A stretch of 39,153 nucleotides of DNA, taken from the IMG/VR virus record IMGVR_UViG_2609459804_000025; one strand, given 5' to 3'. The position numbers and the translations under genes are program-made. The DNA comes from a virus. Taxonomy: Duplodnaviria > Heunggongvirae > Uroviricota > Caudoviricetes. This document shows, piece by piece, positions 2,148 through 38,091 of the stretch (position 1 is its first letter; each line of letters starts with the position of its first letter). The notes under the pieces were generated by a model that had not been told where the DNA came from, made no database searches, and saw nothing but the letters and a program-made list of their open reading frames with translations.

Positions 2148-3293
2148 CTAGCCAGTCGTGGCGCGCTCTGCTATCCAGTCTGCGATTTTTGCTTCCAGCT
2201 CCAGTCTGGTGGTGAAGCCGCTGTCGTCGATGACGTGCTCAATGCGCGAAATAATCCAGTCCTGATTGTCAATGTCGCTCTTGAACCCGGATACCGTGCC
2301 GTGCATCTCCGGATACAGGTCGGCGCGTCCGCGCGCCAGCGTGATGCTGAATTCTGCTGCACCCCGCTGAAGTTGCTGCCAGCGTGCGGCAGCTGCGCGA
2401 CGCGCGGCTTCTTCGTTCGGGTAGGTTTTTCTCAGCACATACACATTGCCTTCTGCGCCTTCCATGTATCCACCCTCCCGTGAACTGCTTTTCTCCGGCT
2501 TCTGTGTGGTTTTCGCGTTTCGCTTTTTCACGTTCACGGCCTTCTTCTGGCCGAACTTTAAATCCAGCCAGTAAGCTTTCACTCCGGTATAGGCTTTTCT
2601 GTCAGCAATGCGAAAGCGATGACTGTCGCCATCCGAGCGGGTCAGGGCGAATGAGGGGAGGGCGCGCCCGCTGGCTGTCACACCGCCACCCGGCAGAATG
2701 AACAGCAGGCACCCGTTTTTTACGGTGGTTATTGCACCCAGCATGTCAGCCATACGCGTGAGGAACGAGATGTCGCTTTCCTCTGTCTGGTCTGCATGGT
2801 CGATTTCGATATTCATCAGCATTTCGCTGATTTGTGCTTTCAGTCCGTAACGGTGCGCGATGGCAGATACCACACGCTCAACGGTCACGTCATGCCAGGA
2901 GACTTCGCGTTTCACGTTAAACTCTTCGCGAAAATCCGCACTGTTCGCGGATATGGTCAGCTTATCCGGCGGACCTTCGTGGCTCACTTCGTCCACCACA
3001 AACGCCCCCTTGCGAGTGAGGCTTTCACCTTTCCATCCCATCGCCAGCGATAATCGTGTTCCGCGCTCCGGAAGTACCACCCCGCCGTCGGCGTCGTCGA
3101 TTTCCAGTGTCACCCTGTCAGCCTCAAAACCCCTGTTGTCTGTCATGGTCAGGCTCATGATGCGCTGCGTGATGTTCTTCAGGCTGGCATCTTTCCCTTC
3201 CAGTGTGATAGTGAAGTCTGGCACCCTAACGGTATCTTCCGCTGCATCCAGTGCGCTGTTGATGTGATGTGTTACTGATTCAGTGATGCTCAT
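2148..3293 (-). CDS. D: phage tail protein D (late control gene D)
   Basis: 381 aa; strong similarity along the whole length to P2 gpD as recalled (LTDNRGFEAD, SWHD, FLTR, KLLF, ITRSDGD, GEYMAGE, RGxAEFSI, SGFK, DQDW, FTT.LELE). Confidence 0.93.
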   Translation of the reverse strand: MSITESVTHHINSALDAAEDTVRVPDFTITLEGKDASLKNITQRIMSLTMTDNRGFEADRVTLEIDDADGGVVLPERGTRLSLAMGWKGESLTRKGAFVVDEVSHEGPPDKLTISANSADFREEFNVKREVSWHDVTVERVVSAIAHRYGLKAQISEMLMNIEIDHADQTEESDISFLTRMADMLGAITTVKNGCLLFILPGGGVTASGRALPSFALTRSDGDSHRFRIADRKAYTGVKAYWLDLKFGQKKAVNVKKRNAKTTQKPEKSSSREGGYMEGAEGNVYVLRKTYPNEEAARRAAAARWQQLQRGAAEFSITLARGRADLYPEMHGTVSGFKSDIDNQDWIISRIEHVIDDSGFTTRLELEAKIADWIAERATTG

Positions 3294-3434: not shown

Positions 3435-4640
3435 ATGGTGAATCGTATGGCTGAAAAACGATTTCACGGTGTGCGCGTCACGGAGAATACCGACCTTGTG
3501 ACGGCCATTAATGACGTTGATTCCAGCGTCATTGGTATTGTTGCCGTTGCAGATGATGCGGATACCGGGCAGTTCCCCCTTAACAAGCCTGTGCTGATTA
3601 CCCGTGTATCTTCTGTTCTGGGGAAGGCCGGGAAAGCGGGCACGCTTTATAAGGCCCTTAAAGCGATATCTGACCAGGTCAGTACACGGGTGATTGTCGT
3701 TCGCGTGGAGGCGGCAAAAGAGGGGGCTGAGAATAAAACACAGGATCAACTGGTCATTGGTACCACGGAAGAAGACGGAAGCTACAGCGGTATGCAGGCG
3801 CTTCTGGTTGCCGAACAGATGGAAGGTATTGGTTACCGACCCCGCATTCTTGCCGCTCCGGGCCTTGAATCGGATGCTGTCACGGCTGCACTGGTGACTG
3901 TTGCCGGAAAAATGCGCGCATTTGCGTATTCCGGCTGCCCTGGCTGCACAAAACCGTCCGATGCTATTGCGTTCCGTAAAAAGATTTCCGGTCGCGAAAT
4001 CATGCTTCTGTGGCCTGATTTCATTGCGTTCAACCCGGTGTCCGGTAAAAACGAAACCTTCCCGGCTGCGGCGTATGCGTGCGGTCTTCGTGCCCGACTC
4101 GACCATGAACAGGGCTGGCATCGCTCCCTTTCTAACATGCCTGTGAAAAATGTTCTTGGGGTGTCAGCGTCTGTTTCCTGGTCACTTCAGGATGAAAACA
4201 GCGATGCCAACACGCTGAACAATAGCGAGGTGACCACTCTTATTCACCAGGGCGACGGCTCCTTCCGTTTCTGGGGTAACCGTACGCCGGAAACTGCGGA
4301 GTACATCTTTGAGGTGTACACACGTACGGCGCAGCAACTGGCTGACACCATTGCGGAGGCGCAACTTCAGATAGTGGATTCACCGCTTACGCCTGCCAAT
4401 GCTAAGGATGCCGTGAGCGCTATCAAGGCAAAGCTGGATGCACTGGTGACAGCCGGAAAACTCATCGGGGCTGAGTGCTGGTTCGATATCATCGACAACG
4501 GCACAACCAGTCTTCGTCAGGGCATTGTGCGTATTCGCTACAAATACACGCCTGTTCCGCCGATGGAGTGTATGGAACTCTATCAGACGTTTACCGACGA
4601 GTTCTTTGGCTCTGCTTTTGCATCTCTTGGAGGTAGCTAA
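3435..4640 (+). CDS. FI: contractile tail sheath protein FI
   Basis: 401 aa; close match to P2 gpFI as recalled (FPLNKPVLIT, GTTEEDG.Y.G, ILAAPGL, KMRAF, WPDF, DHEQGWH, WGNRT, YTRTAQ, YTPVPP). Alternative start ATG at 3447. Confidence 0.93.
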   Translation: MVNRMAEKRFHGVRVTENTDLVTAINDVDSSVIGIVAVADDADTGQFPLNKPVLITRVSSVLGKAGKAGTLYKALKAISDQVSTRVIVVRVEAAKEGAENKTQDQLVIGTTEEDGSYSGMQALLVAEQMEGIGYRPRILAAPGLESDAVTAALVTVAGKMRAFAYSGCPGCTKPSDAIAFRKKISGREIMLLWPDFIAFNPVSGKNETFPAAAYACGLRARLDHEQGWHRSLSNMPVKNVLGVSASVSWSLQDENSDANTLNNSEVTTLIHQGDGSFRFWGNRTPETAEYIFEVYTRTAQQLADTIAEAQLQIVDSPLTPANAKDAVSAIKAKLDALVTAGKLIGAECWFDIIDNGTTSLRQGIVRIRYKYTPVPPMECMELYQTFTDEFFGSAFASLGGS

Positions 4641-5739: not shown

Positions 5740-8563
5740 TAATCTCCAGATACGTGTAGCCCTTACTGCGGTCGACCGTCTCACTCAACCCGTCAGGCGC
5801 GCCCGGGAAATGACCGGCGCGCTTTCCGAATCTCTTTCCTCCACGCAGAACGCTCTTAAGTCACTCCAGCGAAGCAGTGATGCGTTTTCCCGTGCCCGCC
5901 AGCAGGTGACCTCGACTGAAAACAGTCTGAACGAGGCGCGTGCGCGACTTCAGCGCCTCCAGGAGGCCCAGCGTACAGGCACAACACTAACGGAAAAACA
6001 GCAGGAAGCTATACGCTCGCTGACTGTGAAGATTGATCGCCTTAATACGGTTTATTCCCTCCACAAATCCCGACTTAGCGAAGCCAGTCGCGAACTGGAA
6101 TCTCACGGTATACGGGCGGACGGAAGTAACCGTGCGGTCGAGAGGGCAATCAGGCGGACGCAGGAATACAACGATCAGCTCGAACGCCAGCGGGGCCAGC
6201 TTGCACGCGTCACGCAGGCGCAGCAACGCTATGACCGTGTTCAGGATATTGCCGGTAAGCTCAGTCAGCGCGGTGCTGTTGCCATGGCGGCTGGCAGTGC
6301 CGGTCTGTATGCTGCCGGTCGCGCGGTTGCACCTGTTGTTGAAGAGCAACGGCAGGGTGCGCTCATTGCGGCACAGAGTGGCGGCAGCGCAGAAGACGGC
6401 CAGCGCTACAGCCGTATGATTCAGAGCATCCGTGCGTCAGGTGCGGCCACGGATATCGCGATGATTTCGGAAGCAGCAGCTGCGGCGCAAAGCACGCTTG
6501 GCGCACTGGGTACCGTAGGGACTGAAGAACTGGAAAGGGTGACACGGCAGGCAATCGATCTTGCTCAGGTCACCGGCGGTAATGTGGCTGAACAGGTTCA
6601 GGCTGCTGGCATTATGCTGAAAAACGGGCTTGCCGCAAATGCAGGTGAGGCCGTCGACCTGATGGCGGCAGGGATGCAGAAAATGTCTGCCGAAATGCGC
6701 GGCGAACTTCCTGAAATTCTGCATGAGTATTCCACGCATTTCCGCAATATGGGGCTATCCGGCTCTGAAACCATGACGCTGCTTGTCAGCATGGCGCAGC
6801 AGGGGAAATTCGCCCTGGATAAAACCGGCGATGCTGTCAAAGAATTCAGTATTCGCGGCTCGGATATGTCCAAATCCAGCGTTGAAGCCTATGAGCTGAT
6901 TGGCCTTAACGCTGAAAGAATGTCGTCAGCGATCGCCAGTGGCGGCGCGGCCGCGCGTGAAGCGATGCGTCGCACCGCGTCAGGTCTGTTACAGATTCAG
7001 GATCCTGCAGAACGGGCCAATGCGGCGATAGCGCTGTTCGGCACACCCATTGAAGATCTGGCTGTTGACCAGATCCCGGATTTTCTCCGGTCGCTTGCAA
7101 CGGTATCTGACCGTATGGGGCTGGTTCAGGGAACCGCCCGGCGAATGGGGGATGTTCTGCGTGACAACCTCGGCGGCGACACCGATCGTCTGTCCGGCAT
7201 TTTCTCCGGTATTCGCAGTGATGTTGTGTCGCTGGTTACTGATGATATCCGCGAGCTTGTACAGGCTGTTGCTTCTGTGGGTGAACGCTTCAGGTCGTGG
7301 GTTCAGGAAAACCCGCAGCTTGTACGCACGCTGACCCTTACCGTGGGTGGCGTGCTTGCGGCCACAACGGCCATTGGTGCGTTGTCTGTCGGAGGTGGGT
7401 TACTGACGGGGATTTTTGCAAAACTTCAGCTTGGCTCTGCGCTTCTTGGTGGCGGGCTATCCTCGCTTACAAACGGTGTTGGTGGTCTTGCTCTTCGCCT
7501 GTCCGGCCTTCCGGCACTGTGGGGGATGGTCTCCGGTGCGGTTTCTGTGCTGGGCGGGGTGCTTTCCGGTCTTCTCAGTCCTGTTGGTCTCGTGATTGCT
7601 GCTCTTGCCGGTGGGGCGCTGCTCATATGGCGTCACTGGGAACAGGTTAAGGCGTTCATGCTCGGCACATTCCGGTCGCTGTGGGCTGGCCTTGCGCCTG
7701 TTCGTGAAAGTATTGCTCAGTTTGCGCCGTTGTTTGATCTGGTGTCGGGTGCGGTGTCCACGGTGTTTGACTGGTTTACCCGGTTACTCACGCCTGTTCA
7801 GGCCAGCAACGAATCTCTTGAACGGTGTACGTCTGCGGGAGAAAGCTTCGGTCGTGTACTTAGTGGGGCGATATCGCTTGCGCTTACGCCGCTGAAGGCG
7901 CTGATGGATGGACTTGCCTGGGTACTGGAAAAGCTTGGCGTGCTGCCTGATGAAGCTGAAAGGGCGCGCCGGAAACTGGAGGATGCACAGCGGGCTTCGC
8001 TTCTTCAGGGCAAGCTCTCCCTGCTTCAGGGGGATGTTAATGCCATTATCTCGCCCGCTAAGCCAGTTGATGGCAATGATAAAGGTAATAATGGTGGCAA
8101 GCCTTCTGTCATAAACGACGGCACCAGTGGCGTTCTTCGCAGGCTCAAAGGTATCGAGGGTAATACGTCGGGTATGCTTCAGGAAGCCCGCAAGCGTATC
8201 GGTCCTGGCGATATCGTGTTTAAAAATCTCCCCCGTGCGCTGGCTGTTCGCGGGCAGTGGAATGAACCGACTGTTGCACCCGGGCTTCCGCTTATGCCAG
8301 CGTTTTCGCCTGTGTCTCCGGCGGTTTCCCCGGATTCTTCCCGTCCTGTGGAGGTTAAGCGGTGGGATCCGGTGTCCCCGACACCCCGGGGGCCTTCGCG
8401 CTCTCCTGAACCGCCGCCTGTGTACGGTGGTGATATTCATGTTCACCTTCACAACGTGGTTACGCAGAACCCTCGCGACCTTGCCAGAATGGTGGGGGAG
8501 GCGGTACGGGAAGAAATTCGCAGACAATCCGGCGGTATGAACAGTTTCCGCGATCGTGATTAG
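5732..8563 (+). CDS. T: tail tape measure protein T
   Basis: About 943 aa from ATG 5732 (the track start at 5678 is GTG); coiled-coil N-terminus, Gly/Ala-rich hydrophobic middle, position between E/E' and U; typical tape-measure composition. Confidence 0.9.
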   Translation: MSNNLQIRVALTAVDRLTQPVRRAREMTGALSESLSSTQNALKSLQRSSDAFSRARQQVTSTENSLNEARARLQRLQEAQRTGTTLTEKQQEAIRSLTVKIDRLNTVYSLHKSRLSEASRELESHGIRADGSNRAVERAIRRTQEYNDQLERQRGQLARVTQAQQRYDRVQDIAGKLSQRGAVAMAAGSAGLYAAGRAVAPVVEEQRQGALIAAQSGGSAEDGQRYSRMIQSIRASGAATDIAMISEAAAAAQSTLGALGTVGTEELERVTRQAIDLAQVTGGNVAEQVQAAGIMLKNGLAANAGEAVDLMAAGMQKMSAEMRGELPEILHEYSTHFRNMGLSGSETMTLLVSMAQQGKFALDKTGDAVKEFSIRGSDMSKSSVEAYELIGLNAERMSSAIASGGAAAREAMRRTASGLLQIQDPAERANAAIALFGTPIEDLAVDQIPDFLRSLATVSDRMGLVQGTARRMGDVLRDNLGGDTDRLSGIFSGIRSDVVSLVTDDIRELVQAVASVGERFRSWVQENPQLVRTLTLTVGGVLAATTAIGALSVGGGLLTGIFAKLQLGSALLGGGLSSLTNGVGGLALRLSGLPALWGMVSGAVSVLGGVLSGLLSPVGLVIAALAGGALLIWRHWEQVKAFMLGTFRSLWAGLAPVRESIAQFAPLFDLVSGAVSTVFDWFTRLLTPVQASNESLERCTSAGESFGRVLSGAISLALTPLKALMDGLAWVLEKLGVLPDEAERARRKLEDAQRASLLQGKLSLLQGDVNAIISPAKPVDGNDKGNNGGKPSVINDGTSGVLRRLKGIEGNTSGMLQEARKRIGPGDIVFKNLPRALAVRGQWNEPTVAPGLPLMPAFSPVSPAVSPDSSRPVEVKRWDPVSPTPRGPSRSPEPPPVYGGDIHVHLHNVVTQNPRDLARMVGEAVREEIRRQSGGMNSFRDRD

Positions 8564-25935: not shown

Positions 25936-27633
25936 TTATTTATCCTCTTTAATGATTTTGTTATAGTCAAAATCCCAAATTTTTCTGTCAATGCCGTTTG
26001 TTGGTGTAACCCGGTAGAATAAGGATCGTAATCCATTGTAAAAATACTGGAGAGATTTCTGATTTTCTGGTTTGTTTAACCAGTTTCTTGTAATCATTCT
26101 AAAGAATTCAATATGCTGATTGAATATTTTCTTATTTAATTTTCTGCTTAAACCGGATGTAGACTCATGGTTGTCTTTTCTTTTCTGAATTTCAGTTTCA
26201 ATTGATTGTAATTGAGGACGTATCTTGAGTAAGTATAACTCTTTCGAAAAACCATTGTTAATTATATCCTGATTTTCCCAGAAGGAAGAGTCGTCGGTAT
26301 TATAAAGGTGCTCACAATGCTCAAATATCAATTGTTCTGGAGCTTTTTCACCCGGCAGTGATATAATTCCTCTCTGATCCTCAGGGCTGTGATCTCCATC
26401 AAGAATACAAATTGATTTTAACGAGGTTTCCTTAAGATGAGAATCATTAAAAATAGTTTTTAAATTGTCTGCACCAATGAAACAATCAATTAAGTGAAAT
26501 GAATTACTAACTATAGCAAAATTTGGATATTTGCTTATCCAATAACCAAGTATTTCATTAAATAAAAAGCGAGCTTCTTCATCTTCCGTGAAAACTGGTA
26601 TCTTGTTCCTTGTGTATATCTCATCCTTTGTTTGTGTTTTCAGATACATTGTTATTTTTAATATATCAGGATTATCCAAAAGCAGAGCCTTTGTAATATT
26701 GTTAATTAGATAGACAACATGGTATTTTTTATGAAAAGCATATTCTAGCAATGTCAGACTGTGCGTTGTGAAAAATACTTGAATCTTATAATCTTTTGCG
26801 TATTGATAAATTTTATCTAATAATCTTATCTGTAAAGAAGGATGTAAAGTGGCATCAAATTCATCTATTAACAGAATGCTTTCTTTTTGATCAGTGGATT
26901 GAATAAGTGATTCAAAATAATACCTAAGGCTAACTAATGCCTTGATTATAATGAATATATTGTCTTCCCCGGATGATATGGTATTAGAATCAATTGCTGG
27001 GTTATCGGTATCAAATAATGGGCCAGCTTTAAAATCTCCGATATTGTTTGATTCTATATTTATAATATTAATGCCCAAAAGTTCATTATATATTTTCGAT
27101 ATATAACCAACATACTCTTCTGGTAGGTTTAACGGAATTTTTGTAAGGGCGTCGTCTTTAGTTTCACCAATCGGGAATAGTCGCGATAATCCAAGATATA
27201 AAACTGGTTTAGCTGGAAGTGATTGTTTTTCTTTTCCGCGTGGGTATACTGGTTTGATAGCATACCGTTGCGCTTCGTCTGGATTTTTTGAGTTGTGCTT
27301 TCTGAAGTCTAGTGTGCTATGATCCAAATAGTTAATAGAAAATAACACACCTTTTGTTCCCTCTGCCGGATCGGTGTAATTTTTTGATTCCCTAACAATT
27401 GCTTCCATTTTTGGGTTGGCTATTTTGTTTATAGATTTTATAACTCTAACACAATTACTATTTGAATAATTTTGTGATCTAGATGGTGGTATTTGGAAAC
27501 CATTGCTAATTAAATGAAGCAATGTTGTCTTACATGTCCCATTGGTTCCTGATATTATATTGATGTCTTCATTGAATGAGAAGTCAATATCTATCAGTTT
27601 CTTAAATTTTTTAAAACTAATTTCTTTAATCAT
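25936..27633 (-). CDS. ABC-type ATPase with C-terminal TOPRIM-like nuclease domain (OLD-family-like ATP-dependent nuclease)
   Basis: 565 aa; Walker A ISGTNGTCKTTLL, signature-like ISSGEDN, Walker B/D-loop ILLIDEFDATLHP, H-loop FFTTHS; C-terminal FTEDEE and ILDGDH fit TOPRIM E and DxD motifs. Very AT-rich coding sequence; SD aaggatg. Confidence 0.8.
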   Translation of the reverse strand: MIKEISFKKFKKLIDIDFSFNEDINIISGTNGTCKTTLLHLISNGFQIPPSRSQNYSNSNCVRVIKSINKIANPKMEAIVRESKNYTDPAEGTKGVLFSINYLDHSTLDFRKHNSKNPDEAQRYAIKPVYPRGKEKQSLPAKPVLYLGLSRLFPIGETKDDALTKIPLNLPEEYVGYISKIYNELLGINIINIESNNIGDFKAGPLFDTDNPAIDSNTISSGEDNIFIIIKALVSLRYYFESLIQSTDQKESILLIDEFDATLHPSLQIRLLDKIYQYAKDYKIQVFFTTHSLTLLEYAFHKKYHVVYLINNITKALLLDNPDILKITMYLKTQTKDEIYTRNKIPVFTEDEEARFLFNEILGYWISKYPNFAIVSNSFHLIDCFIGADNLKTIFNDSHLKETSLKSICILDGDHSPEDQRGIISLPGEKAPEQLIFEHCEHLYNTDDSSFWENQDIINNGFSKELYLLKIRPQLQSIETEIQKRKDNHESTSGLSRKLNKKIFNQHIEFFRMITRNWLNKPENQKSLQYFYNGLRSLFYRVTPTNGIDRKIWDFDYNKIIKEDK

Positions 27634-27650
27634 CTATATCATCCTTAAAT

Positions 27651-28496
27651 TTAAATGTCAGGGATTTTTATACCATGATTATAAATGATAATTTCTAGAC
27701 CTTTTTTCTTATCTTGTGCAGTATAATTAAGCGTATAATCAGTCATGTTGAATTCATGATATATGCTTTTTATTTCAGGCACATTGTCATAAGACACAAC
27801 CCAAGGTAGTTGAATTTCACGTAGTGTATTAGCGATTTTTACATGATCATCATGTTTATAAAAATTTCTATATAACTCTGCTCCTTTAACATAATAAGGT
27901 GGATCAAGATATATTAGACTATTTTGGGGTAGTAATGCTTTTTGGTGTAGCAGAAAATCTGCAGCATCAAAATTCGATACGTAAATTTTCTCCTTATATG
28001 CACCAATTAGTTCAATCCTTTTAATTAACTCTTTTTTGTTGAATCTTGCATCTAACTTCCATGGTCCTTTTTGTTCTTTCCCTCCAATAACGCCAGCCTT
28101 AAGTATTCCTGAACGGTTTGTTCTATTTAAAAAGAAAGTAGATAATGCGACTTCAAGCATACTATATTTATCATTGTTTAGGAGTATCTCCTTTTGAGTA
28201 TGCCAATTTTCAATAGTCACAGGAACTTCATCAATCATTTCACATAACAGATCGTTATGATTAACCACTGCAAACCAAAAAGAATAAAGGGCAGGATCAA
28301 TATCATTTATGAAGATATTTTCAACAAGACCGTTAAGGAGCAAACCTAATGCTACACCGGCTCCACCTGCATAAGGTTCAGCATAACATCCACCAATGAG
28401 ATCATTGTTGCGGAGTATTTGTTCAATATGTGGCAAGAATTTTGCCTTACCTCCCGGATAACGAAGAGGGGTTCTAAAATGAGAAGGCTTTGTCAT
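27651..28496 (-). CDS. N6-adenine DNA methyltransferase, D12 (Dam-like) class
   Basis: 281 aa; N-terminal RYPGGK...EPYAGGAGV (AdoMet-binding, Dam motif order) and catalytic DPPY (IYLDPPYY); AT-rich like the downstream nuclease gene, 17 bp apart on the same strand. Confidence 0.85.
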   Translation of the reverse strand: MTKPSHFRTPLRYPGGKAKFLPHIEQILRNNDLIGGCYAEPYAGGAGVALGLLLNGLVENIFINDIDPALYSFWFAVVNHNDLLCEMIDEVPVTIENWHTQKEILLNNDKYSMLEVALSTFFLNRTNRSGILKAGVIGGKEQKGPWKLDARFNKKELIKRIELIGAYKEKIYVSNFDAADFLLHQKALLPQNSLIYLDPPYYVKGAELYRNFYKHDDHVKIANTLREIQLPWVVSYDNVPEIKSIYHEFNMTDYTLNYTAQDKKKGLEIIIYNHGIKIPDI

Positions 28497-28756: not shown

Positions 28757-31540
28757 CTATTTGCCTCTCTTTTGGAGCAAAGTAGCCTTGCGGCGGGCGC
28801 GTTCAGTGGTTTCATTGATTCTTTGTGCGTGCTCTGTGTCACGGATGGCGCGCAGCATGTCAGAAAGCACGGTAACGGGAGTTTTCATGCTGTTCTGGTC
28901 CTGCTGAATTGTGGATGCCAGGCGTGCGGCGGCTTCGGGGTCTGATGCCCCGAGCTGCTCCAGATAGCTGGCGACCGGGTTATGGCGGATCTCCGTGCTG
29001 CTTACGCCGTGATTACGGCTCAGGCGCTGCCAGAGCTGCGTGATTCGGCTGTCCGGGCGGGTATCCGGTTTGCGTACAATTTCAAATCCCTGCGGTGCAA
29101 TGATGCTGCCGTCAACGTACAGAGTGCCGCCCCGTAACAGGTACTGCATCTGCTGTTCACCGATATGCAGGCCGAGAGATTCGGCAGACTCCCGCCATTC
29201 TTTAGCGAGTAACTCGTGGTTATCAGGCAAAGGCCGTGGCTGTTTGCGGCTCTGTGTCCAGTTCTGCATTTCATCACTGCTGTTTTTTGCCTGTTTGTCA
29301 CGCAGCGAACGCATCAGCGCCCGGCGTTCGTGCCGTTTCAGTGAGCGCATCCACTCATCCACATCAACGCCGTCAGGGATCTGCGTCCACGGTGTTGGTT
29401 GCTCTTCCGACTGTTCTGTCCCGCTGTTGCCTGTTTCCTGTACACGGGGACAGTTATTGCCACGAGTCCAAGGTGCGGCGAAGCCGCCCCCAACGTCAAA
29501 ACCCTCGTCCGTGCTGTTGTCGGATTTCGCTTCTTTTCTGACCAGTTTCCATTCGTCCGGATGGGTACAGATGGTGTAGCGCTCGCCGAGCGACGGGGCA
29601 CAAATTCCGTAGATGCGCTGCGGGAATTCGCCGTAGTCGTTGGCCTCATCTGCGGTTTCGTATGCGGTGCGGATCAGGTACAGGTTGCGTGGAATGAGCA
29701 CGCCGCCCTGACGGTTGATGTAGGTGGCAAAACACCCCACGTCAGCGGCGGCCAGAATGGCGTCAATGTCGTCATGGTCCAGGCGCTTCGGTGATGCGGG
29801 GTTACGCTCCATTTGTCCGGCAAGGCGGCGGAGTTCACGCCATACCTGTCGGGGCGGGATACCGAAGAACTGGAACTGCCGGATGCGGTGGAGACTCGCC
29901 CAGGCAATGGCGTTTTCCACGGTTTCCGCCATGGTTTTTCCCGATTCTTTATCGGCGTAAGGTTTGCCGGTTTTCGGGTCATTGTCGTGAAAGGTGCTGG
30001 CGTCCAGGTTCTTGCCAATATAGGTTGCGATGTAGCTTGCCGGTGTGCCTTTTGCCGGGTCGATTTTTTCGCACTTGAAGCGCGGAGAAATATCATTCCC
30101 CAGTTCTGCGCGATCTGATTTGATTGCTGCGTCACGCATGATTTCAATGATGCGTTCTTCATTGTCCGGGGCGGTGAATACCAGCATGTGCCAGTGCGGT
30201 GTGCCGTCATGGTGTGGCTCAACGGTGCGCACCCCGTACCAGCTCAGGCCTTCTTTGTTGAGTTTTTTTCTTGCAGCTGCAAAGACGTCGTAAACCAGAT
30301 AATCACTGGCATCGCGCACGGTGGCACCGTTGTATTTCGGGTTCAGGCTGCCGTCCTCGTTCACGCTGTGAAAGCGGGAAGGGCAGGTTACTGTCACGAA
30401 GAACGCGGAGTCACCACGCGATTCGGCGACCTGTTCCATCCCTCTGACGCAGGCCATCATCTCGTTGCGGCGGTTGCGCGGATTCCCCAGCCCTGACCAG
30501 TACACGTCCTCCAGACTCAAGCGTTCACCGTCTTCGTTTTCAATGTCCCAGCTTTTGAGAAAATCACGGGTGCGCTGGCGTTTCTCCCGGAATTCCTGGA
30601 GTGACTCATGGCTGATGTAGGGGGATGCCTTGCGCGATACTCTTCCGGCGGCACGCAGTAATTCCTCCCGCCAGAGATCAGCGAGGTGGCGCAGCTGGTT
30701 GTTCCACCAGGTGGCGCAGGTGATACGCATTACCGCACCCGGTACCAGTTCAGGGTCTGGTGCCGTGCGGCGGTCACGTCTGATCTCGAGTGACGGCCAG
30801 TATGGTGGGTTCACGCCCAGTTTTATTGCCATGCGCGCCAGCTGCTGGTAAGTCAGCAACCAGGTAAACAGGTTATCGTCGCCTTTTCCTGTCCGCTCAG
30901 TAACTTCATCACATATGCGTTCCAGTTCGGTGGAAAATGCCGCCGCCGTTAGTGTGGCAAGGCGCTGAATTTGATTACGGTTGAGTTGTGGCAGCATGAG
31001 TAATTCATCAAGGCGATGGCGTGCTGCGGTGGCTTTGAATGCTGTCGTGGCGAAGCATTCATTCACCTGTTCGATGCGTTTCAGGCGTGTGCGCAGTCCA
31101 CGGCGAACGAAGTTATCGGCCACGTGAGTGTTGTTGTTTTTCACGCCTTCATTGCGGGCGCTTTGTTGTTTGCGGTTTAAACGCGCCAGATCACGAATGA
31201 GCGCGTTACCAAGAAACGAGGGCAGGGCGCGAAGTTCTGCCATGGCTTCAGATACCAGCGTTGGCGGATTTTCGCGTTTGTGCCGCGCCAGTTTTTCCAG
31301 TCTGATCCGACGCTCTTCGTCGTGGTGAAGGTGCGAATTAATTCGCTTGCCTTCGTCTGTGTTTGTCAGGAAGTCGACGGTTTCTTCATCCAGTCTGGCG
31401 TCAGTGCGAATATCCTCGTTGATGTAGCTCTGAATGGCCTGGCGTAATGCGGTTGGCTGTGCTCTGCCGAACGTTTCAGGATCGATAACCGGTAGCGGGG
31501 CGTTCCACGGGTACGCCAGTTGTGCGTTATGGTCGCTCAT
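28757..31540 (-). CDS. A: replication initiation endonuclease A (rolling-circle Rep, P2 gpA family) with long C-terminal extension
   Basis: About 927 aa from MSDHN (ATGA overlap with upstream ORF stop); contains VEPHHDGTPHWHMLVF (HUH metal-binding motif) and ASYIATYIGKNLD (catalytic tyrosine motif), both as in P2 gpA. Confidence 0.88.
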   Translation of the reverse strand: MSDHNAQLAYPWNAPLPVIDPETFGRAQPTALRQAIQSYINEDIRTDARLDEETVDFLTNTDEGKRINSHLHHDEERRIRLEKLARHKRENPPTLVSEAMAELRALPSFLGNALIRDLARLNRKQQSARNEGVKNNNTHVADNFVRRGLRTRLKRIEQVNECFATTAFKATAARHRLDELLMLPQLNRNQIQRLATLTAAAFSTELERICDEVTERTGKGDDNLFTWLLTYQQLARMAIKLGVNPPYWPSLEIRRDRRTAPDPELVPGAVMRITCATWWNNQLRHLADLWREELLRAAGRVSRKASPYISHESLQEFREKRQRTRDFLKSWDIENEDGERLSLEDVYWSGLGNPRNRRNEMMACVRGMEQVAESRGDSAFFVTVTCPSRFHSVNEDGSLNPKYNGATVRDASDYLVYDVFAAARKKLNKEGLSWYGVRTVEPHHDGTPHWHMLVFTAPDNEERIIEIMRDAAIKSDRAELGNDISPRFKCEKIDPAKGTPASYIATYIGKNLDASTFHDNDPKTGKPYADKESGKTMAETVENAIAWASLHRIRQFQFFGIPPRQVWRELRRLAGQMERNPASPKRLDHDDIDAILAAADVGCFATYINRQGGVLIPRNLYLIRTAYETADEANDYGEFPQRIYGICAPSLGERYTICTHPDEWKLVRKEAKSDNSTDEGFDVGGGFAAPWTRGNNCPRVQETGNSGTEQSEEQPTPWTQIPDGVDVDEWMRSLKRHERRALMRSLRDKQAKNSSDEMQNWTQSRKQPRPLPDNHELLAKEWRESAESLGLHIGEQQMQYLLRGGTLYVDGSIIAPQGFEIVRKPDTRPDSRITQLWQRLSRNHGVSSTEIRHNPVASYLEQLGASDPEAAARLASTIQQDQNSMKTPVTVLSDMLRAIRDTEHAQRINETTERARRKATLLQKRGK

Positions 31541-31953
31541 GCGTCGCACTCCCCGGCAGTTGCCACCTGAAACGCCGCGCGGTACAGCACGAGAAGGCGC
31601 TGGTATTCGCCGATAAAACCTTCTGCGGTGTATATACCTTTCACGGCCACGCTGTGGGTTGTCATTTCCAGAACCAGCGCCATCTCTGATGACGACCAGC
31701 TGATGGCGGTACTGTCGGTGCCGTTGATGTGAAATAAACCCAGTCCATCACCATCACCTTTCACGTCCACGCGGTAACGACCGTCCACGGTGAAGGAGAA
31801 ATCCCCGTATGTGGTGACGCTGCGGGCAGCCTGTTTACAGGCGCGGCGGTAATAGTCGTGCCAGTTGTTCAGGCGGGAAGCCAGCAGGGGATCCACCGCC
31901 CACATCCAGTTAAAGAAGTCCTGAATATCTGAAAGTCCCTTAACGCTCTTCAT
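31537..31953 (-). CDS. hypothetical early protein (138 aa) immediately upstream of A
   Basis: ORF with stop/start coupling to A; no recognised motif. Confidence 0.55.
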   Translation of the reverse strand: MKSVKGLSDIQDFFNWMWAVDPLLASRLNNWHDYYRRACKQAARSVTTYGDFSFTVDGRYRVDVKGDGDGLGLFHINGTDSTAISWSSSEMALVLEMTTHSVAVKGIYTAEGFIGEYQRLLVLYRAAFQVATAGECDA

Positions 31954-32021
31954 GAGAACCTCCGGTAACAGACGTGCGGAAGCCTCCCGCGTGCAGGTGT
32001 GGGATAGCTTCCGGATGTGGT

Positions 32022-32243
32022 TTATCGGTGCTGGTTGATGAGGCTTTGCAGTTCTGCCAGGTCTTCGGCCAGATAGCTGAAGACGGCAGCGCAGTAACGG
32101 TTTGATAGTGCGTGCGTGCGCTCATGCAGCATGTTGATATGCATGATTTGCGCGACGCGTGTTGCGCGGAAAAGTCTGCGGTTGATTTCGCTTCGGATGT
32201 GAAGACGCTCAGCGCGGGCGCGCTGTTGCTTGCGGTTTGCCAT
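32022..32243 (-). CDS. hypothetical small basic protein (73 aa)
   Basis: ATG preceded by agagg SD at about 8 nt; Arg-rich N-terminus (MANRKQQRARAERLHIRSEINRR) suggests nucleic-acid binding; no recognised family. Confidence 0.45.
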   Translation of the reverse strand: MANRKQQRARAERLHIRSEINRRLFRATRVAQIMHINMLHERTHALSNRYCAAVFSYLAEDLAELQSLINQHR

Positions 32244-32288
32244 GGTGTGGCCTCTTTGCTCGGTGATAGAAATAACTCACCATCCAGA

Positions 32289-32478
32289 GTTGAGAATCTC
32301 GGGGTGGCGAGACGTACAGGGTTCTCAACACCGGAGAGCAAAGAATCCGGCCCGACCGAAGTCGGCCCCGTACGCCCCGCCATAATTCTGACGCGAAAAA
32401 GACGTGGCAATACAGTACGCACAAAAAAACCGCTGGCGCGGTTATGCGCTTTGCTCTGTATCGGGTTGAGAATCCCGG
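32289..32478. promoter_or_regulatory. repeat-rich structured divergent intergenic region (three copies of GTTGAGAA(T/C)C motif, nested inverted repeats)
   Basis: GTTGAGAATCTCGGGG at 32289, its inverted copy at 32317-32334, GTTGAGAATCCCGG at 32465; 8-bp long-range inverted repeat gagcaaag/ctttgctc (32336-32343 / 32449-32456) enclosing hairpins ggccgaccgaagtcggcc and accgctggcgcggt. Confidence 0.45.
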
Positions 32479-32626
32479 CACCCGTTTTATGAGGTGCAGC
32501 GGAAATGTAACCCGACACGACGAGCGCTGGCAAGCGGTTTTTGTGTTGCGTGCTGATGTGGTTAGAATGTTGCGAATTAATATCACCTGGCAACTGGTGA
32601 TTGTCTGCATACGCGGGGTGTTTCTG

Positions 32627-33091
32627 ATGAGTGATAAGCTCCCTTCTGATTACGAAATTCTTTTTGACCTGTGGTACAGCTACTGGCTTGAACACATGAC
32701 AAGCCTTCTCCACCGTCGCGCTTCCTTGGTTCTGAGGATTAGCGCTTTCCTTGCGATTGTTGCCGCATTCATTTTTTGCGACAGCGCAACGTTTGTTTTC
32801 GCCAGTGTGGTGCTCTTTCTGGTGTGGCAGGTCATGGCTGCCTCTCTTTCTATCAGAGCTGAAAAGGCTGAATGGCAGGCGCTTAGCTATCAAAGACTGA
32901 TTAGCCAGCGCCACGTGCTCACCCCGGAATGCATGATTGCGCGCCTCTCCTTTGTTGAGGAAAGTGACAGCCCCGTGATGGAGTGCATGATCAACCTTGC
33001 CTGGAATAAAGCCTGTGAGACGGTTGGTAGCTCTGCGCGCAATCATGTTTCGATCTCCGGTCGGTTACTCAGTCGCCTGTGCGGCTTTTGA
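32627..33091 (+). CDS. hypothetical inner-membrane protein (about 154 aa, two predicted TM helices), transcribed opposite to the early operon
   Basis: ATG 32627 with gggg SD-like sequence upstream; MSDKLPSDYEILFDLWYSYWLEH then two hydrophobic helices (ISAFLAIVAAFIF, FVFASVVLFLVWQVMAA); 3' end overlaps the convergent DUF4406-like gene. Confidence 0.5.
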   Translation: MSDKLPSDYEILFDLWYSYWLEHMTSLLHRRASLVLRISAFLAIVAAFIFCDSATFVFASVVLFLVWQVMAASLSIRAEKAEWQALSYQRLISQRHVLTPECMIARLSFVEESDSPVMECMINLAWNKACETVGSSARNHVSISGRLLSRLCGF

Positions 33092-33415
33092 TTTGTGAAG
33101 CAGCTGCGCGACGGTTTCGCCGGCTGCCCGGTTTTCCGGGAATGACACTGGCATGTTCAGTTTGAGTGCCATTACGTACTCCGCCCGCGCGCCAGCTGAA
33201 TCCACCCAGCCTTCCAGTAAGTAAATGGCATCGGCACACATGAGCATCGGAATACAAATGCTCATGTACTGCTGCTGGCTTAATCCTTCCGGCAACGTGG
33301 CAGGGTTCAGCACAACGTGCCCGTCTGCCGCGAGCCTCATCGCCTCTGTGAAAAACGCCGTCCTGTTGTGGTCTTTGCATCCGGTCATGGGACCGGCGAT
33401 ATAAATCACTGCCAT
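33065..33415 (-). CDS. DUF4406-like protein (nucleoside 2-deoxyribosyltransferase-like fold)
   Basis: 116 aa; N-terminal IYIAGPMTG and later LLEGW/SAGA pattern typical of DUF4406 prophage proteins as I recall them. Confidence 0.65.
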   Translation of the reverse strand: MAVIYIAGPMTGCKDHNRTAFFTEAMRLAADGHVVLNPATLPEGLSQQQYMSICIPMLMCADAIYLLEGWVDSAGARAEYVMALKLNMPVSFPENRAAGETVAQLLHKSKAAQATE

Positions 33416-37749: not shown

Positions 37750-38091
37750 ATGGTGAACATGTCAAGAGATTACGCCAAAAAACTGAAGGCGATCAGAAAT
37801 GCGGAAAAACTTACGCAAGCTCAGTTCTCGCAAGTAACGGGGGTTTCTGTAGGAACTATAGGAAATTATGAGTCTGGATATAAACCTGCGCGAATTGAGG
37901 TTGTAGAAAAAGTAATCCAAGTCGAGCGATTCGAAAAATACACTATGTGGATACTTCACGACAAAACATTTCCCGCTGCCGGGCAGGTTGCCCCGGCTCT
38001 CTCTCTTGATGGCTCCATTCAGTCGGAGGGCGATCAGGTTTCAATCGGCATTACCCAAAAATCACCCCGATCTCGTCGCAATGCTGGCTAA
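37750..38091 (+). CDS. C: immunity repressor C (HTH_XRE)
   Basis: 113 aa; HTH LTQAQFSQVTGVSVGTIGNYESG; FEKYTMWIL and PALSLDGS segments resemble P2 C (FTKYTLWFM, PALAHFGQ). Confidence 0.8.
   Translation: MVNMSRDYAKKLKAIRNAEKLTQAQFSQVTGVSVGTIGNYESGYKPARIEVVEKVIQVERFEKYTMWILHDKTFPAAGQVAPALSLDGSIQSEGDQVSIGITQKSPRSRRNAG

Follow-up and report, generated by a model that had tools for sequence, protein, structure and literature searches.

What is a repeat-rich, folded spacer doing between two facing genes within the early operon of a P2-like prophage? The window, that is, the whole stretch of 39,153 nt analysed here, is a P2-like E. coli prophage, and an earlier note on it had described a plus-strand membrane-protein ORF ending at 33091 that faces an Arg-rich ORF of 73 aa across about 380 bp. 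Both ORFs are present, the second at 32243..32022 on the minus strand and the first with its gene start corrected to 32627, so that the spacer measures 383 bp from start codon to start codon. Among the functions suggested for it, the regulatory sRNA is the one that has held: the intergenic region (32244-32626) contains two RNA genes, both on the minus strand and both above the curated Rfam thresholds, which the covariance models place in the order isrK-type leader (62.8 bits, threshold 50) and then C4 (78.5 bits, threshold 45). That the RNA structure lies entirely on the minus strand had been missed at first reading. We propose that the 320 bp from 32563 to 32244, minus strand, are very probably an antisense-RNA immunity cassette of the P1 immI / P4-immunity type. 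Its layout is observed directly and its mechanism follows by homology, the promoter, the RNA ends, RNase P processing and the regulatory outcome all being predicted from related systems. The cassette belongs to the known P1/P4 C4/IsrK type, and its setting here is a P2-like prophage. Both RNAs belong with the downstream part of the early/replication operon, not with the plus-strand gene.

The RNA genes and their recognition sites

The elements of the cassette and the genes behind it, all on the minus strand, are as follows.

32530..32546, minus: upstream arm of a long-range helix, complementary to the terminator 3' strand plus U-tract (32437-32421)
32504..32533, minus: sigma-70-like internal promoter (promoter scan), -35 TTGCCA at 32533-32528, -10 TTACAT/TACATT at 32510-32504
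32423..32497, minus: IsrK / P4-seqA / c4-a1b1-type leader RNA (Rfam RF01394)
32474-32465, minus: a1 = AUUCUCAAC, loop of leader hairpin 2
32456-32449, minus: b1 = GAGCAAAG, leader linker
32443-32421, minus: leader intrinsic terminator, stem 32443-32428 plus U7 (terminator scan)
32300..32387, minus: C4 / P4-CI-type antisense RNA (Rfam RF01695, full-length match 1-87)
32343-32336, minus: b' = CUUUGCUC, loop of C4 hairpin 2
32329-32320, minus: a' = GUUGAGAAC, single-stranded segment after C4 hairpin 2
32289..32298, minus: target a2 = GAUUCUCAAC, directly 3' of C4, complementary to a'
32251..32261, minus: target b2 = GAGCAAAGAGG, overlapping the Shine-Dalgarno AGAGG of the 73-aa ORF
32022..32243, minus: 73-aa homologue of P4 epsilon (helper derepression / putative anti-repressor; Pfam, BLASTP, phrog)
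31537..31953, minus: orf138 (phrog_3237)
28757..31540, minus: P2-type replication initiator gpA, rolling-circle nickase (Pfam Phage_GPA, E = 2.7e-108)

The match to the C4 family (78.5 bits) compares with 68.8 bits for P1 and 74.9 bits for P4. The nested inverted repeats described earlier are confirmed. In the MFE fold of the 88 nt at 32387..32300, which equals the consensus, a closing stem of 17 bp encloses two hairpins (-47.6 kcal/mol; z = -4.9), and 0 of 200 shuffles proved equally stable. Covariance supports this structure. Of the 27 C4 pairs that RNAalifold gives for 17 sequences (P1, P4, P2-like phages and satellites among them), 12 are compensatory, and no pair of the closing stem is broken. 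Neither a' nor b' takes part in base pairs of the fold, and the closing stem is followed at the 3' end by GCCA, as in P1 and P4.

What, then, are the repeats? Three copies of GTTGAGAA(T/C)C, one of them inverted, had been reported and are confirmed: GTTGAGAAYC occurs at 32289-32298 and 32465-32474 on the plus strand and inverted at 32320-32329, and nowhere else in the 39 kb (0.15 copies expected from shuffles, of which 0 of 100 reach three). These three repeats correspond to the C4 recognition segment a' and to a1 and a2, the sites that it targets. A second trio, GAGCAAAG/CTTTGCTC, unnoticed at first reading, is the b'/b1/b2 set (32254-61, 32336-43, 32449-56). Contiguous complementarity to a1/a2 and b1/b2 amounts to 8-9 bases, with 9 between b' and b2.

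The leader matches the isrK model and not the c4-a1b1 model (RF03163; 15.9 bits, below the threshold of 46.7), and its MFE fold agrees with the former (z = -3.1). Its parts are, in order, hairpin 1, hairpin 2 with a1 in the loop, a linker with b1, and an intrinsic terminator that is kept across relatives. Transcription is predicted to begin with the G at 32497, to which position 1 of the isrK model corresponds, and TTGCCA-N17/18-TTACAT(T) ends 7 nt ahead of this G, as a consensus match only. Both hexamers and an A-tract upstream of the -35 are kept in 60 unique relatives with differing upstream genes, and the P4 PLE and P1 P1c4 promoters occupy the same place. A second promoter-like site is located just before C4 (TTGCCA 32410 / AATTAT 32382); the conserved 5' flank of C4 makes up its -10 and, in our reading of the alignment, its -35 is not strictly conserved, being TCGCCA in some relatives.

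The 8-bp long-range stem that had been noticed, CACAAAAA/TTTTTGTG (32420-32427 / 32538-32545), lies within a 17-nt inverted repeat (I1) whose arms are complementary at 15 of 17 positions in the window, a value reached by 1 of 300 dinucleotide shuffles of the region. Reading of the alignment gives 16/17 in most relatives, with an A7 run; in P4 and P1 the corresponding complementarity is only 10/17. Because the arm is upstream of the internal start, it would be found only in read-through transcripts from the early operon. With RNAfold, transcripts from +1 keep the terminator and longer ones swap it for the long helix, in the window and in four relatives. On a speculative reading, early-operon read-through transcripts of this lineage could use the 17-nt arm to get past the leader terminator.

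A protein-coding spacer was considered and rejected: a 133-aa minus-strand ORF (32610..32209) has no Pfam match, and the indels of relatives break its frame. In one relative PGAP places a partial 'ash family protein' over the spacer region, a call explained by the fact that Pfam Phage_ASH matches the translation of the old 'cI ORF' of P4, which spans the CI RNA gene.

Downstream genes and a model of the switch

After the RNA cassette come the 73-aa ORF, orf138 and, as last gene, a P2-type gpA, a layout that P4 and P1 share. The 73-aa protein aligns with P4 epsilon (BLASTP, 32% identity over 50 aa, E = 8e-8), matches phrog_3688 (E = 7e-39) and passes Pfam PF25738 'Derepression' marginally (28.2 bits, threshold 27; P4 epsilon itself 170 bits), which makes it a putative, epsilon-like anti-repressor. 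Its dN/dS is 0.17-0.35; a search of genome contigs with it returned only 2 loci, and a PDB sequence search gave no significant match. P4 epsilon inactivates the P2 C repressor. The repressor of the present prophage, at 37750-38091, is homologous to P2 C (36% identity, E = 5e-22), so that a target for the 73-aa protein exists, and their interaction is predicted. The stop codon of orf138 overlaps the gpA start (ATGA), and the two genes are therefore probably translationally coupled. In L001 the gpA counterpart, called 'replication endonuclease' by PGAP, has an identical start (window 31540) and a different 3' end. Two further identities were discarded: P1 Icd for the 73-aa ORF, which is of equal length (73 aa) but gives no BLASTP alignment at E <= 100, and P4 orf151 for orf138, to which no similarity was seen.

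How would such a switch work? The internal promoter would start the leader, whose hairpin loop would display a1 and whose linker would display b1, and which would stop at the intrinsic terminator. Read-through transcripts would carry C4/CI RNA, then a2, and then b2 over the ribosome-binding site of the 73-aa gene. C4 would probably be excised by RNase P, by analogy with P1 and P4, and its exposed segments b' (loop) and a' (single strand) would pair with b2 and a2, blocking translation of the epsilon-like anti-repressor gene; orf138 and replication gene A would also be lowered, through polarity or premature termination. Besides, C4 may pair with a1/b1 of the leader. Repression might be mainly translational, following the P1 model, or proceed by transcription termination, following that of P4. 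In P4, pairing of CI with seqA is reported to strengthen termination at the leader terminator, a negative control. In Gifsy-1 the free short leader IsrK acts oppositely and frees the message for translation (PMC4825925). From these two pairing effects, the balance between short leader and C4 would set the expression of the anti-repressor and replication genes.

A variant of this explanation, rather than an alternative to it, takes the leader as mainly a positive trans-acting sRNA, as IsrK is in Gifsy-1. The short RNA would bind the read-through transcript or C4, make the first ORF's ribosome-binding site accessible and so trigger anti-repressor synthesis and induction, C4 being merely an inhibitory element that the leader counteracts. 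Both the mechanism of IsrK and the IsrK-dependent induction of Gifsy-1 have been demonstrated experimentally (PMC4825925). Here, the leader has the same a/b sites as the mRNA target and can therefore compete for C4, and its strong intrinsic terminator implies that the short RNA form should be abundant. On the other hand, the homologous CI-seqA pairing of P4 is reported to raise termination, and the a1/b1 match is broken in two natural relatives, L010 (a chimera) and L023 (a 3-nt deletion), so that these upstream sites may be dispensable. This positive role is a real possibility, against which we lean slightly.

The same elements, in the same order and spacing (promoter, a1 b1, c4, a2 b2, first ORF), make up immI of P1/P7, and the P1 record annotates a1, b1, c4, a2 and b2 in this way. 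The likeness extends to the leader (two hairpins, a1 in the second loop, then b1 and a terminator-like hairpin), to C4 (b' in the hairpin 2 loop, a' single-stranded, a2 directly after C4) and to b2, which in P1 is at the ribosome-binding site of a 73-codon first ORF, 10 nt before icd, an equivalent position. In P1, C4 blocks ant translation around the ribosome-binding site, and P1/P7 heteroimmunity rests on differences in the a/b sequences (PMC12197685). Unlike the leader here, the region upstream of icd-ant in P1 reaches 51.0 bits with c4-a1b1 (threshold 46.7) and only 35.1 with isrK (threshold 50), next to its C4 match. Further differences are that the first ORF here is a P4-epsilon homologue and not Icd, that orf138 and P2 gpA stand instead of Ant1/2, that no C1-type operator was seen, and that the host phage is P2-like, not P1-like.

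In the case of P4, the immunity region (PLE - seqA - CI RNA/seqB - seqC - epsilon - orf151 - alpha) has the same Rfam pair in the same order upstream of epsilon (isrK 60.8 bits, followed by C4), the a/b sites match likewise, an epsilon-family gene is located downstream and the operon ends with a replication gene. P4 differs in having an additional small ORF between CI and epsilon, the alpha primase-helicase as replicase where gpA is found here, and no terminator-complementary long-range arm; moreover, P4 is a satellite whereas the element here is a full P2-like phage of the helper type. The P4 immunity/derepression module (leader, CI RNA, epsilon) has thus a homologue in helper-type phages, which bears on the origin of the hijacking tools of P4.

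The Salmonella Gifsy-1 locus isrK - STnc1160/orf45 - anrP has, as here, an IsrK-family leader with a Rho-independent terminator. IsrK is a structural homologue of P4 seqA that binds Hfq and trans-activates the downstream ORF; read-through yields STnc1160, a processed IsrK-complementary RNA located downstream, and the anti-repressor is controlled translationally (PMC4825925). Transcription of both IsrK and STnc1160 is high in lysogens of Gifsy-1 (PMC7067206). Gifsy-1 is lambdoid, however, and its downstream AnrP-type anti-repressor acts on the AntQ antiterminator cascade, unlike here. The stretch downstream of IsrK is there also a translated 45-codon ORF, the source of STnc1160, whereas no conserved ORF of this type is evident here, since indels break the frame among relatives. 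Tandems of isrK and C4 in lambdoid, Stx, N15 and ST64B phages are found upstream of Ant/Rha anti-repressors, with other backbones and downstream genes. Indeed, blastn with the RNA region identified 131 phage records at 60-80% identity, several adjoining annotated anti-repressors and one annotating 'isrK Hfq binding RNA' and 'C4 antisense RNA' together. Only about 10 of them (P88-like Xuanwuvirus, Citrobacter Shae_phiSM) cover at least 80% of the RNA region, and the P88-type records present a P2-like context with a derepression-protein gene.

Why has the cassette been missing from textbook P2 regulation? The explanation is that classical P2 is devoid of it, as we found on checking P2 itself; our literature searches on the cassette in P2-like phages found nothing specific. 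The cassette is present in 1181 of 5426 complete E. coli genomes, around a fifth, and the version found in O157:H7 is 93-94% identical to the present one. An unannotated 'hypothetical' spacer becomes an identifiable regulatory module of P2-like prophages, a predicted RNA lock on an anti-repressor-like gene and replication gene A, and this module could explain the C-repressor-independent induction, or the silence, of some of these prophages.

Co-variation and specificity classes

Across 55 parsed unique relatives the a and b trios each co-vary three ways, giving 20 a'/b' combinations. The inverted copy stays complementary to both direct copies, counting G-U pairs, and does so in a class with a 1-nt indel too; a2 co-varies with a' in all parsed relatives. 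In these 55 relatives, pairing with own targets amounts to about -9 to -13 kcal/mol and with non-own targets to about -3 to -6 kcal/mol. By site, with letters that follow the P1 site names, the duplex energies are the following.

a1: own -9.4, non-own -3.5 kcal/mol
a2: own -9.2, non-own -2.9 kcal/mol
b1: own -12.0, non-own -5.1 kcal/mol
b2: own -13.4, non-own -5.8 kcal/mol

These data decide against the operator array that the earlier note had also suggested, in which the 10-mers would be repressor-binding sites controlling divergent promoters. Three copies of a 10-mer, one inverted, within a divergent promoter region are what such an array would look like, but only the a1 copy is near the promoter, while the other two are inside and after the structured RNA, and the covariance models treat the repeat positions as unpaired RNA segments. 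Furthermore, the repeats and their targets within one transcript change together so as to stay RNA-complementary; the inverted copy keeps its complementarity across relatives and the second trio does likewise, so that the maintained complementarity in both trios is a signature of RNA-RNA pairing. We hold an operator array to be hardly credible.

By analogy with P1/P7, the a and b sequences would define a specificity, and the co-varying variants would be immunity types. At least 20 natural, co-varying two-site specificities offer both candidate orthogonal RNA-RNA pairs and a means of testing RNA-based heteroimmunity. P4-like satellites display a like combinatorial pattern (13 a'/b' combinations in 78 loci), and no combination is common to these satellites and the phages studied here. 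Of the three same-genome cassette pairs available, two have different specificity and one identical; the co-resident satellites L133 and L135 have identical specificity, and therefore specificity does not strictly bar co-residence. As single examples, a' of one P4-like satellite is AUUUCCAC and a' of one P2-like phage is GUGGAAA.

A more speculative idea is that the recognition segments of phages and P4-like satellites form mirror-image classes, in such a way that the immunity RNA of one element could pair with and titrate that of another in place of its target. Whether incoming or resident, an element of the mirror class would then derepress the anti-repressor and replication genes of the other. 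The arm-mediated bypass of the leader terminator would be a separate matter. We regard this reading as a long shot. If true, it would place an RNA-level cross-induction code on top of the protein-level cross-talk between P2 and P4.

The plus-strand two-TM gene

Is the plus-strand gene part of the switch? Its surroundings comprise the following elements.

32627..33091, plus: gene of a 154-aa two-TM protein (phrog_6315, E = 1.6e-65)
32564-32569, plus: putative -10 TAGAAT of this gene, a promoter-like match
33071-33086, plus: terminator-like hairpin of this gene, spanning the stop codon
33065..33415, minus: DUF4406 (nucleoside 2-deoxyribosyltransferase-like) gene (Pfam, E = 1.3e-33)

The ORF list starts the gene at 32444 (215 aa), and the phrog_6315 profile (152 positions) and the homologues start at MSDKLP, hence at 32627. 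The prediction of a two-TM membrane protein agrees with Kyte-Doolittle hydropathy, which gives one continuous hydrophobic stretch at about residues 33-78 that CDS splits into two TM helices; an AF2 model made with an alignment has a pLDDT of 88. The ORF is conserved and under purifying selection (dN/dS 0.20-0.21), and its family comprises 19 clusters at 50% identity, of about 155 aa save a few fragments. Its 3' end overlaps by 27 bp the convergent DUF4406 gene, which is the last early-operon gene ahead of the inserted gene and adjoins both two-TM alleles, the second of which, 39% identical, fills the same slot in 7 loci. The early regions of Fels-2 and Yersinia vB_YenM_42.18 contain homologues in antisense orientation, and neither of these loci has C4/isrK; literature searches on Fels-2 STM2734 found nothing specific. 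Because the family is also antisense in these phages that lack the RNA cassette, the gene is an independent moron or passenger, inserted just upstream of the cassette promoter and no part of the RNA switch.

This result bears on the RNA antitoxin that the earlier note had entertained, namely a type I/III toxin-antitoxin pair in which the plus-strand protein would be a membrane toxin and the minus-strand RNAs its antitoxin. The protein is indeed small with two TM helices, the RNAs are encoded divergently beside the gene start, and use of the 215-aa ORF from 32444 would place the IsrK-type RNA antisense to that ORF. However, only 25 of the 1181 E. coli genomes with the cassette have the plus-strand gene alongside, and the family occurs without C4/isrK in Fels-2 and the Yersinia phage. 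In addition, the start at 32627 given by profile and homologues falls outside the RNA genes, and the targets with which the recognition sites co-vary lie on the strand of the RNAs themselves and not in the plus-strand gene. A toxin-antitoxin pair is therefore very improbable.

Could the passenger be a lysogen-expressed defence or exclusion effector, a SLATT-like pore transcribed from its own promoter against the lytic operon? The part of the earlier proposal that made it an inserted and possibly lysogen-expressed gene fits its orientation, its own terminator-like hairpin, a dN/dS of about 0.2 and the recurrence of the antisense placement in four P2-like contexts; besides, the -10 box (TAGAAT/TATAAT) is conserved, in our reading of the alignment, between alleles only 39% identical. 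The other part, superinfection exclusion or abortive infection, found no backing, since PADLOC-DB 2.0 profiles matched the protein with 0 families. The best BFVD fold matches are SLATT-domain proteins (SMODS and SLOG-associating 2TM effectors), although with low TM-scores of 0.33-0.46, and the protein has, like these, a long helical hairpin, two TM segments and short C-terminal helices. Unlike SLATT, it has no sequence-profile match (the SLATT Pfam profile gave no family at E <= 0.1 in any of 14 family members), and no nucleotide-signalling or sensor gene was identified nearby. We consider such an effector doubtful, though still worth keeping in mind. In any case, the two-TM gene represents a small uncharacterised family that turns up repeatedly in antisense orientation within P2-like early operons, and reference phage records wrongly annotate it on the other strand.

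The RNA cassette ahead of the epsilon-like gene

Every feature that the earlier note had listed for this locus was found in the window, including the 73-aa ORF (32243..32022, minus strand) and, in the spacer 5′ of it, a repeat and nested inverted repeats. The repeat, GTTGAGAAYC, occurs exactly three times in the 39 kb (32289, 32465 and, inverted, 32320); 0.15 copies are expected from shuffling and none of 100 shuffles reached three. Folding gives a 17-bp stem around two hairpins (z = -4.9), and the reported 8-bp long-range stem is a piece of a 17-nt inverted repeat (32421-32437 / 32530-32546). The regulatory sRNA suggested in that note exists, but its strand and partner gene had been misassigned. 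When the whole window was scanned against Rfam at curated thresholds, as the note had proposed beforehand, exactly two matches were obtained, each lying in the spacer on the minus strand. The features of the cassette and of the genes that follow it are:

32533-32505, minus: promoter-like TTGCCA-N17-TTACAT, which stops 7 nt short of the isrK model's first base
32497..32423, minus: isrK Hfq-binding RNA (Rfam, 62.8 bits, threshold 50)
32443-32428 plus U7, minus: intrinsic terminator of the IsrK-type leader (terminator scan)
32387..32300, minus: C4 antisense RNA (Rfam, 78.5 bits, threshold 45)
between the 73-aa ORF and gpA, minus: orf138 (phrog_3237), whose stop overlaps the gpA start
31540..28757, minus: gpA replication nickase (Pfam Phage_GPA, E = 2.7e-108)

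Thus, the minus strand reads promoter-like site (alternatively N18-TACATT, ending at 32504, in the promoter scan), leader with terminator, 35-nt spacer, C4, 56 nt and the ATG of the 73-aa ORF. Leader and C4 fold as the Rfam consensus. The note had also called for covariance analysis, and RNAalifold on 17 sequences (window, P1, P4, P2-like relatives and P4-like satellites) found compensatory double changes in 12 of the 27 C4 pairs and no broken pair in the closing stem. A second promoter-like site, TTGCCA-N17-AATTAT (32382-32410, minus), lies directly 5′ of C4 with its -10 on the conserved AAUUAUGG flank; it may be non-functional, because its -35 is TCGCCA in some relatives.

The cassette belongs to a known module type, the C4/IsrK RNAs of P1 immI and P4 immunity, since P4, P1, Gifsy-1 and lambdoid-type phages share its RNA arrangement. 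Upstream of epsilon, P4 has the same pair of Rfam matches, likewise with isrK (60.8 bits) followed by C4 (74.9 bits); it scores 44.1 bits for c4-a1b1 and follows the same a/b logic. P1 scores 68.8 bits for C4, 51.0 for c4-a1b1 and a sub-threshold 35.1 for isrK, and its record annotates P1c4, a1, b1, c4, a2, b2, icd and ant in matching arrangement. Structurally, Gifsy-1 IsrK is homologous to P4 seqA, and STnc1160, 3′ of IsrK, is complementary to IsrK and processed from a read-through transcript (PMC4825925); expression of the two RNAs is high in lysogens (PMC7067206). By blastn, more than 130 records of lambdoid, Stx, N15 and ST64B phages contain the isrK and C4 tandem, several of them with it beside an annotated anti-repressor gene, and one phage record annotates the two RNAs together. 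P2 itself lacks the cassette context ahead of an epsilon-like gene and gpA, and we found no description in the literature of a C4/IsrK cassette in P2-like phages. The analysis also yielded, as by-products, a rich natural panel of specificities, a candidate helix for terminator bypass and an uncharacterised family of antisense two-TM genes.

The same RNAs touch on protein annotation. Pfam Phage_ASH (PF10554) matches the translated old P4 'cI ORF' over the CI/C4 RNA gene (59.7 bits, P4 locus 8330-8521), and the real epsilon protein is PF25738. The partial 'ash family protein' pseudogenes that PGAP calls over the RNA region (locus L003, 5266-5526) probably share this effect. A survey of P4-like satellites took PF10554 as its 'epsilon' marker (PMC8628076) and may therefore have detected the RNA locus.

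Recognition sites and their co-variation

The 10-mer repeat is a trio of a sites; a second repeat set, the b trio, had been missed in the earlier note. Named after the curated P1 record, the sites (all minus strand) are:

a′, GUUGAGAAC: single-stranded C4 segment after hairpin 2
a1, AUUCUCAAC: loop in the leader's second hairpin
a2, GAUUCUCAAC: directly 3′ of C4
b′, CUUUGCUC: loop of C4 hairpin 2
b1, GAGCAAAG: linker of the leader
b2, GAGCAAAGAGG: overlapping the 73-aa ORF's Shine-Dalgarno

Using the 73-aa protein, we gathered 84 related loci whose aligned upstream regions gave 60 unique sequences. Across these the flanks are nearly invariant, and the a and b sites vary in concert. There are at least six a classes (GUUGAGAA, GUGGAAA, CUGCGAA, GUUCCAA, GUUGCAA and GUCUCAA), each with matching a1 and a2, and 14 variants of the b′ loop, each with matching b1 and b2; the 55 parsed sequences hold 20 a′/b′ combinations. 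Mean duplex energies with own targets are -9.4 (a1), -9.2 (a2), -12.0 (b1) and -13.4 (b2) kcal/mol, against -3.5, -2.9, -5.1 and -5.8 kcal/mol with non-own ones. Such compensatory variation, three-way and at two sites, gives direct evidence for the repeats as RNA-RNA pairing sites, and it excludes the operator array that the earlier note had entertained. Two loci are exceptions. L010 (~110-521), a recombinant, joins leader a1/b1 from another class to C4, a2 and b2 of the window's class and has a weakened terminator stem, and L023 (~2688-3044) has lost 3 nt from the a1 loop by deletion. Both may be copies in decay; alternatively, they may indicate that a1/b1 is dispensable.

In the closing stem of C4, the 3′ strand (CUCGCCACCC) is also complementary to GGAUGGUGAG further downstream (32244-32299), in an alternative hairpin that would put a2 in its loop. 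The equivalent pairing in P4 (8366-8420) is GCUAUCGCC ... GGCGAUAGC, which suggests a precursor-specific alternative fold.

Three-way matching extends to P4-like satellites: the 78 collected using P4 epsilon show 13 a′/b′ combinations, none of them shared with the P2-like phages. Several a′ segments mirror each other (GUUGAGAA/GUCUCAA, GUGGAAA/GUUCCAA, and satellite AUUUCCAC with phage GUGGAAA), and the GUUGCAA class is self-complementary (palindromic UUGCAA). C4 RNAs of mirror classes could therefore pair with each other at -8.3 to -9.7 kcal/mol, as strongly as with own targets: phage GUGGAAA with satellite AUUUCCAC gives -8.6 kcal/mol, the own-target value, and the window a′ gives -8.3 with phage class GUCUCAA and -6.1 with the P4 a′. 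As a lead only, one immunity RNA could titrate another through mirror a′ segments; the mirror classes could equally follow from the palindromic site flanks (GUU...AAC). Two P4-like satellites of one genome (L133 and L135, IMG 2529293142) have identical a′/b′ specificity, whereas the other same-genome pairs, L103/L157 and L024/L077, differ (three pairs in all, a small sample).

Proposed regulation and the genes controlled

How might the cassette work? Its parts, their complementarities and co-variation, and the homology to P1, P4 and Gifsy-1 are established, and from these three systems we infer the regulatory steps. The internal promoter would be active in the lysogen, with most transcripts ending at the leader terminator to yield a short IsrK-type RNA. 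Read-through transcripts would be processed, probably by RNase P, releasing C4, whose b′ and a′ segments would pair with b2 and a2 and occlude the ribosome-binding site of the epsilon-like gene; orf138 and gpA would also be shut off, via polarity or premature termination. C4 would additionally pair with a1/b1 in the leader, and in P4 pairing of this type raises termination at the leader terminator. Free leader RNA acts oppositely in Gifsy-1, opening the message for translation (PMC4825925). Hence, expression of the anti-repressor and replication genes would be gated by how much leader RNA there is relative to C4, and the a/b sequence would define immunity specificity. Repression could be mainly translational, as in P1, or terminational, as in P4, the sequence being compatible with either.

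The 73-aa protein, which is under purifying selection, scores 28.2 bits, narrowly above the threshold of 27, with Pfam's 'Derepression protein' model, which centres on P4 epsilon, and is 32% identical to P4 epsilon over 50 residues (E = 8e-8). According to literature cited in PMC8628076, P4 epsilon inactivates helper phage P2's repressor. Because the repressor here (37750-38091) is a P2 C homologue (36% identity, E = 5e-22), the simplest reading would make the 73-aa protein this phage's own anti-repressor. P1 Icd was considered and rejected as its counterpart, the lengths being identical and the proteins unrelated. Likewise, orf138 is unrelated to P4 orf151.

Upstream of the predicted internal transcription start is the 17-nt arm (32546-32530), which complements the leader terminator's 3′ strand and U-tract at 15 of 17 positions in the window and, by reading the alignment, at 16 of 17 in most relatives. 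A match of 15/17 arose in one of 300 dinucleotide shuffles, and no equivalent arm exists in P4 or P1 (10/17 each). In RNAfold predictions for the window and four relatives, transcripts from 32497 keep the terminator hairpin and those started upstream swap in the long helix. We tentatively raise the possibility, on balance a doubtful one, that this swap carries transcripts reading through from the early promoter past the leader terminator. Both arms are invariant among relatives and hence offer no variation for a co-variation test. The overlap of the arm with the -35 and UP region could by itself account for this conservation, but it fails to account for the complementarity.

The plus-strand gene and the prophage setting

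The window is a P2-like prophage, with the integrase gene on the plus strand and the early genes as a run on the minus strand (PGAP annotation of the same DNA). Over 31900-33200 it is a 100% match to the E. coli S1-CAM-02-A chromosome. The nearest sequenced phages, P88-like Xuanwuviruses, match at ~84% and only over 32030-32565. Two genes directly 3′ of gpA (25936-28496, minus) have the look of a defence pair: a 281-aa D12 methyltransferase (PADLOC PD-Lambda-5_B, E = 1.2e-121) and, adjacent to it, an AAA/ABC-type ATPase of 565 aa that weakly matches many defence ATPases (AriA, PtuA, GajA, others). In P2 this position is occupied by tin/old. The E. coli genome that matches 100% over 31900-33200 has other genes after gpA; therefore, this end of the window is mosaic.

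The early operon is unbroken in most relatives. The ORF opposing it here ends at 33091 and encodes two adjacent TM helices (~residues 33-78), as the earlier note had described; for its start, 32627 (MSDKLP...) is the likeliest position, given that the PHROG profile and every homologue start at that point. That note had named poor conservation of this ORF as counting against its reading. The gene is real and conserved: it matches phrog_6315 (E = 1.6e-65), its family forms 19 clusters at 50% identity, ~155 aa save a few fragments, with invariant or near-invariant Y/E/R/Q/D-S positions, and dN/dS is 0.20-0.21 between alleles 80% identical in DNA. It is also independent of the RNA cassette, being present in 25 of 1181 cassette-bearing E. 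coli genomes. The slot just 5′ of the cassette promoter holds cargo that differs by lineage (~700 bp upstream in L004-L085, the loci related via the 73-aa protein): either the antisense two-TM gene, in one of two alleles, or a gene for a Dam-like methylase, for a lipoprotein-like protein of 276 aa (MKKFKLFQILPLFAAILLVGCDRVEPG...), or for a protein of 99 aa or of 184-212 aa. Homologues lie antisense inside the early regions of Fels-2 (3995-4453, plus) and Yersinia phage vB_YenM_42.18 (4001-4450, plus), in which C4 and isrK gave no match; the overlapping opposite-strand hypotheticals annotated there, STM2733.1 and vBYenM4218_008, are probably wrong-strand calls. At seven loci this slot, adjoining DUF4406, holds the second allele (39% identical), and reading the alignment places the -10 box of that allele (TATAAT) at the same position as that of the first (TAGAAT). 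A terminator-like hairpin spans the stop codon of the plus-strand gene.
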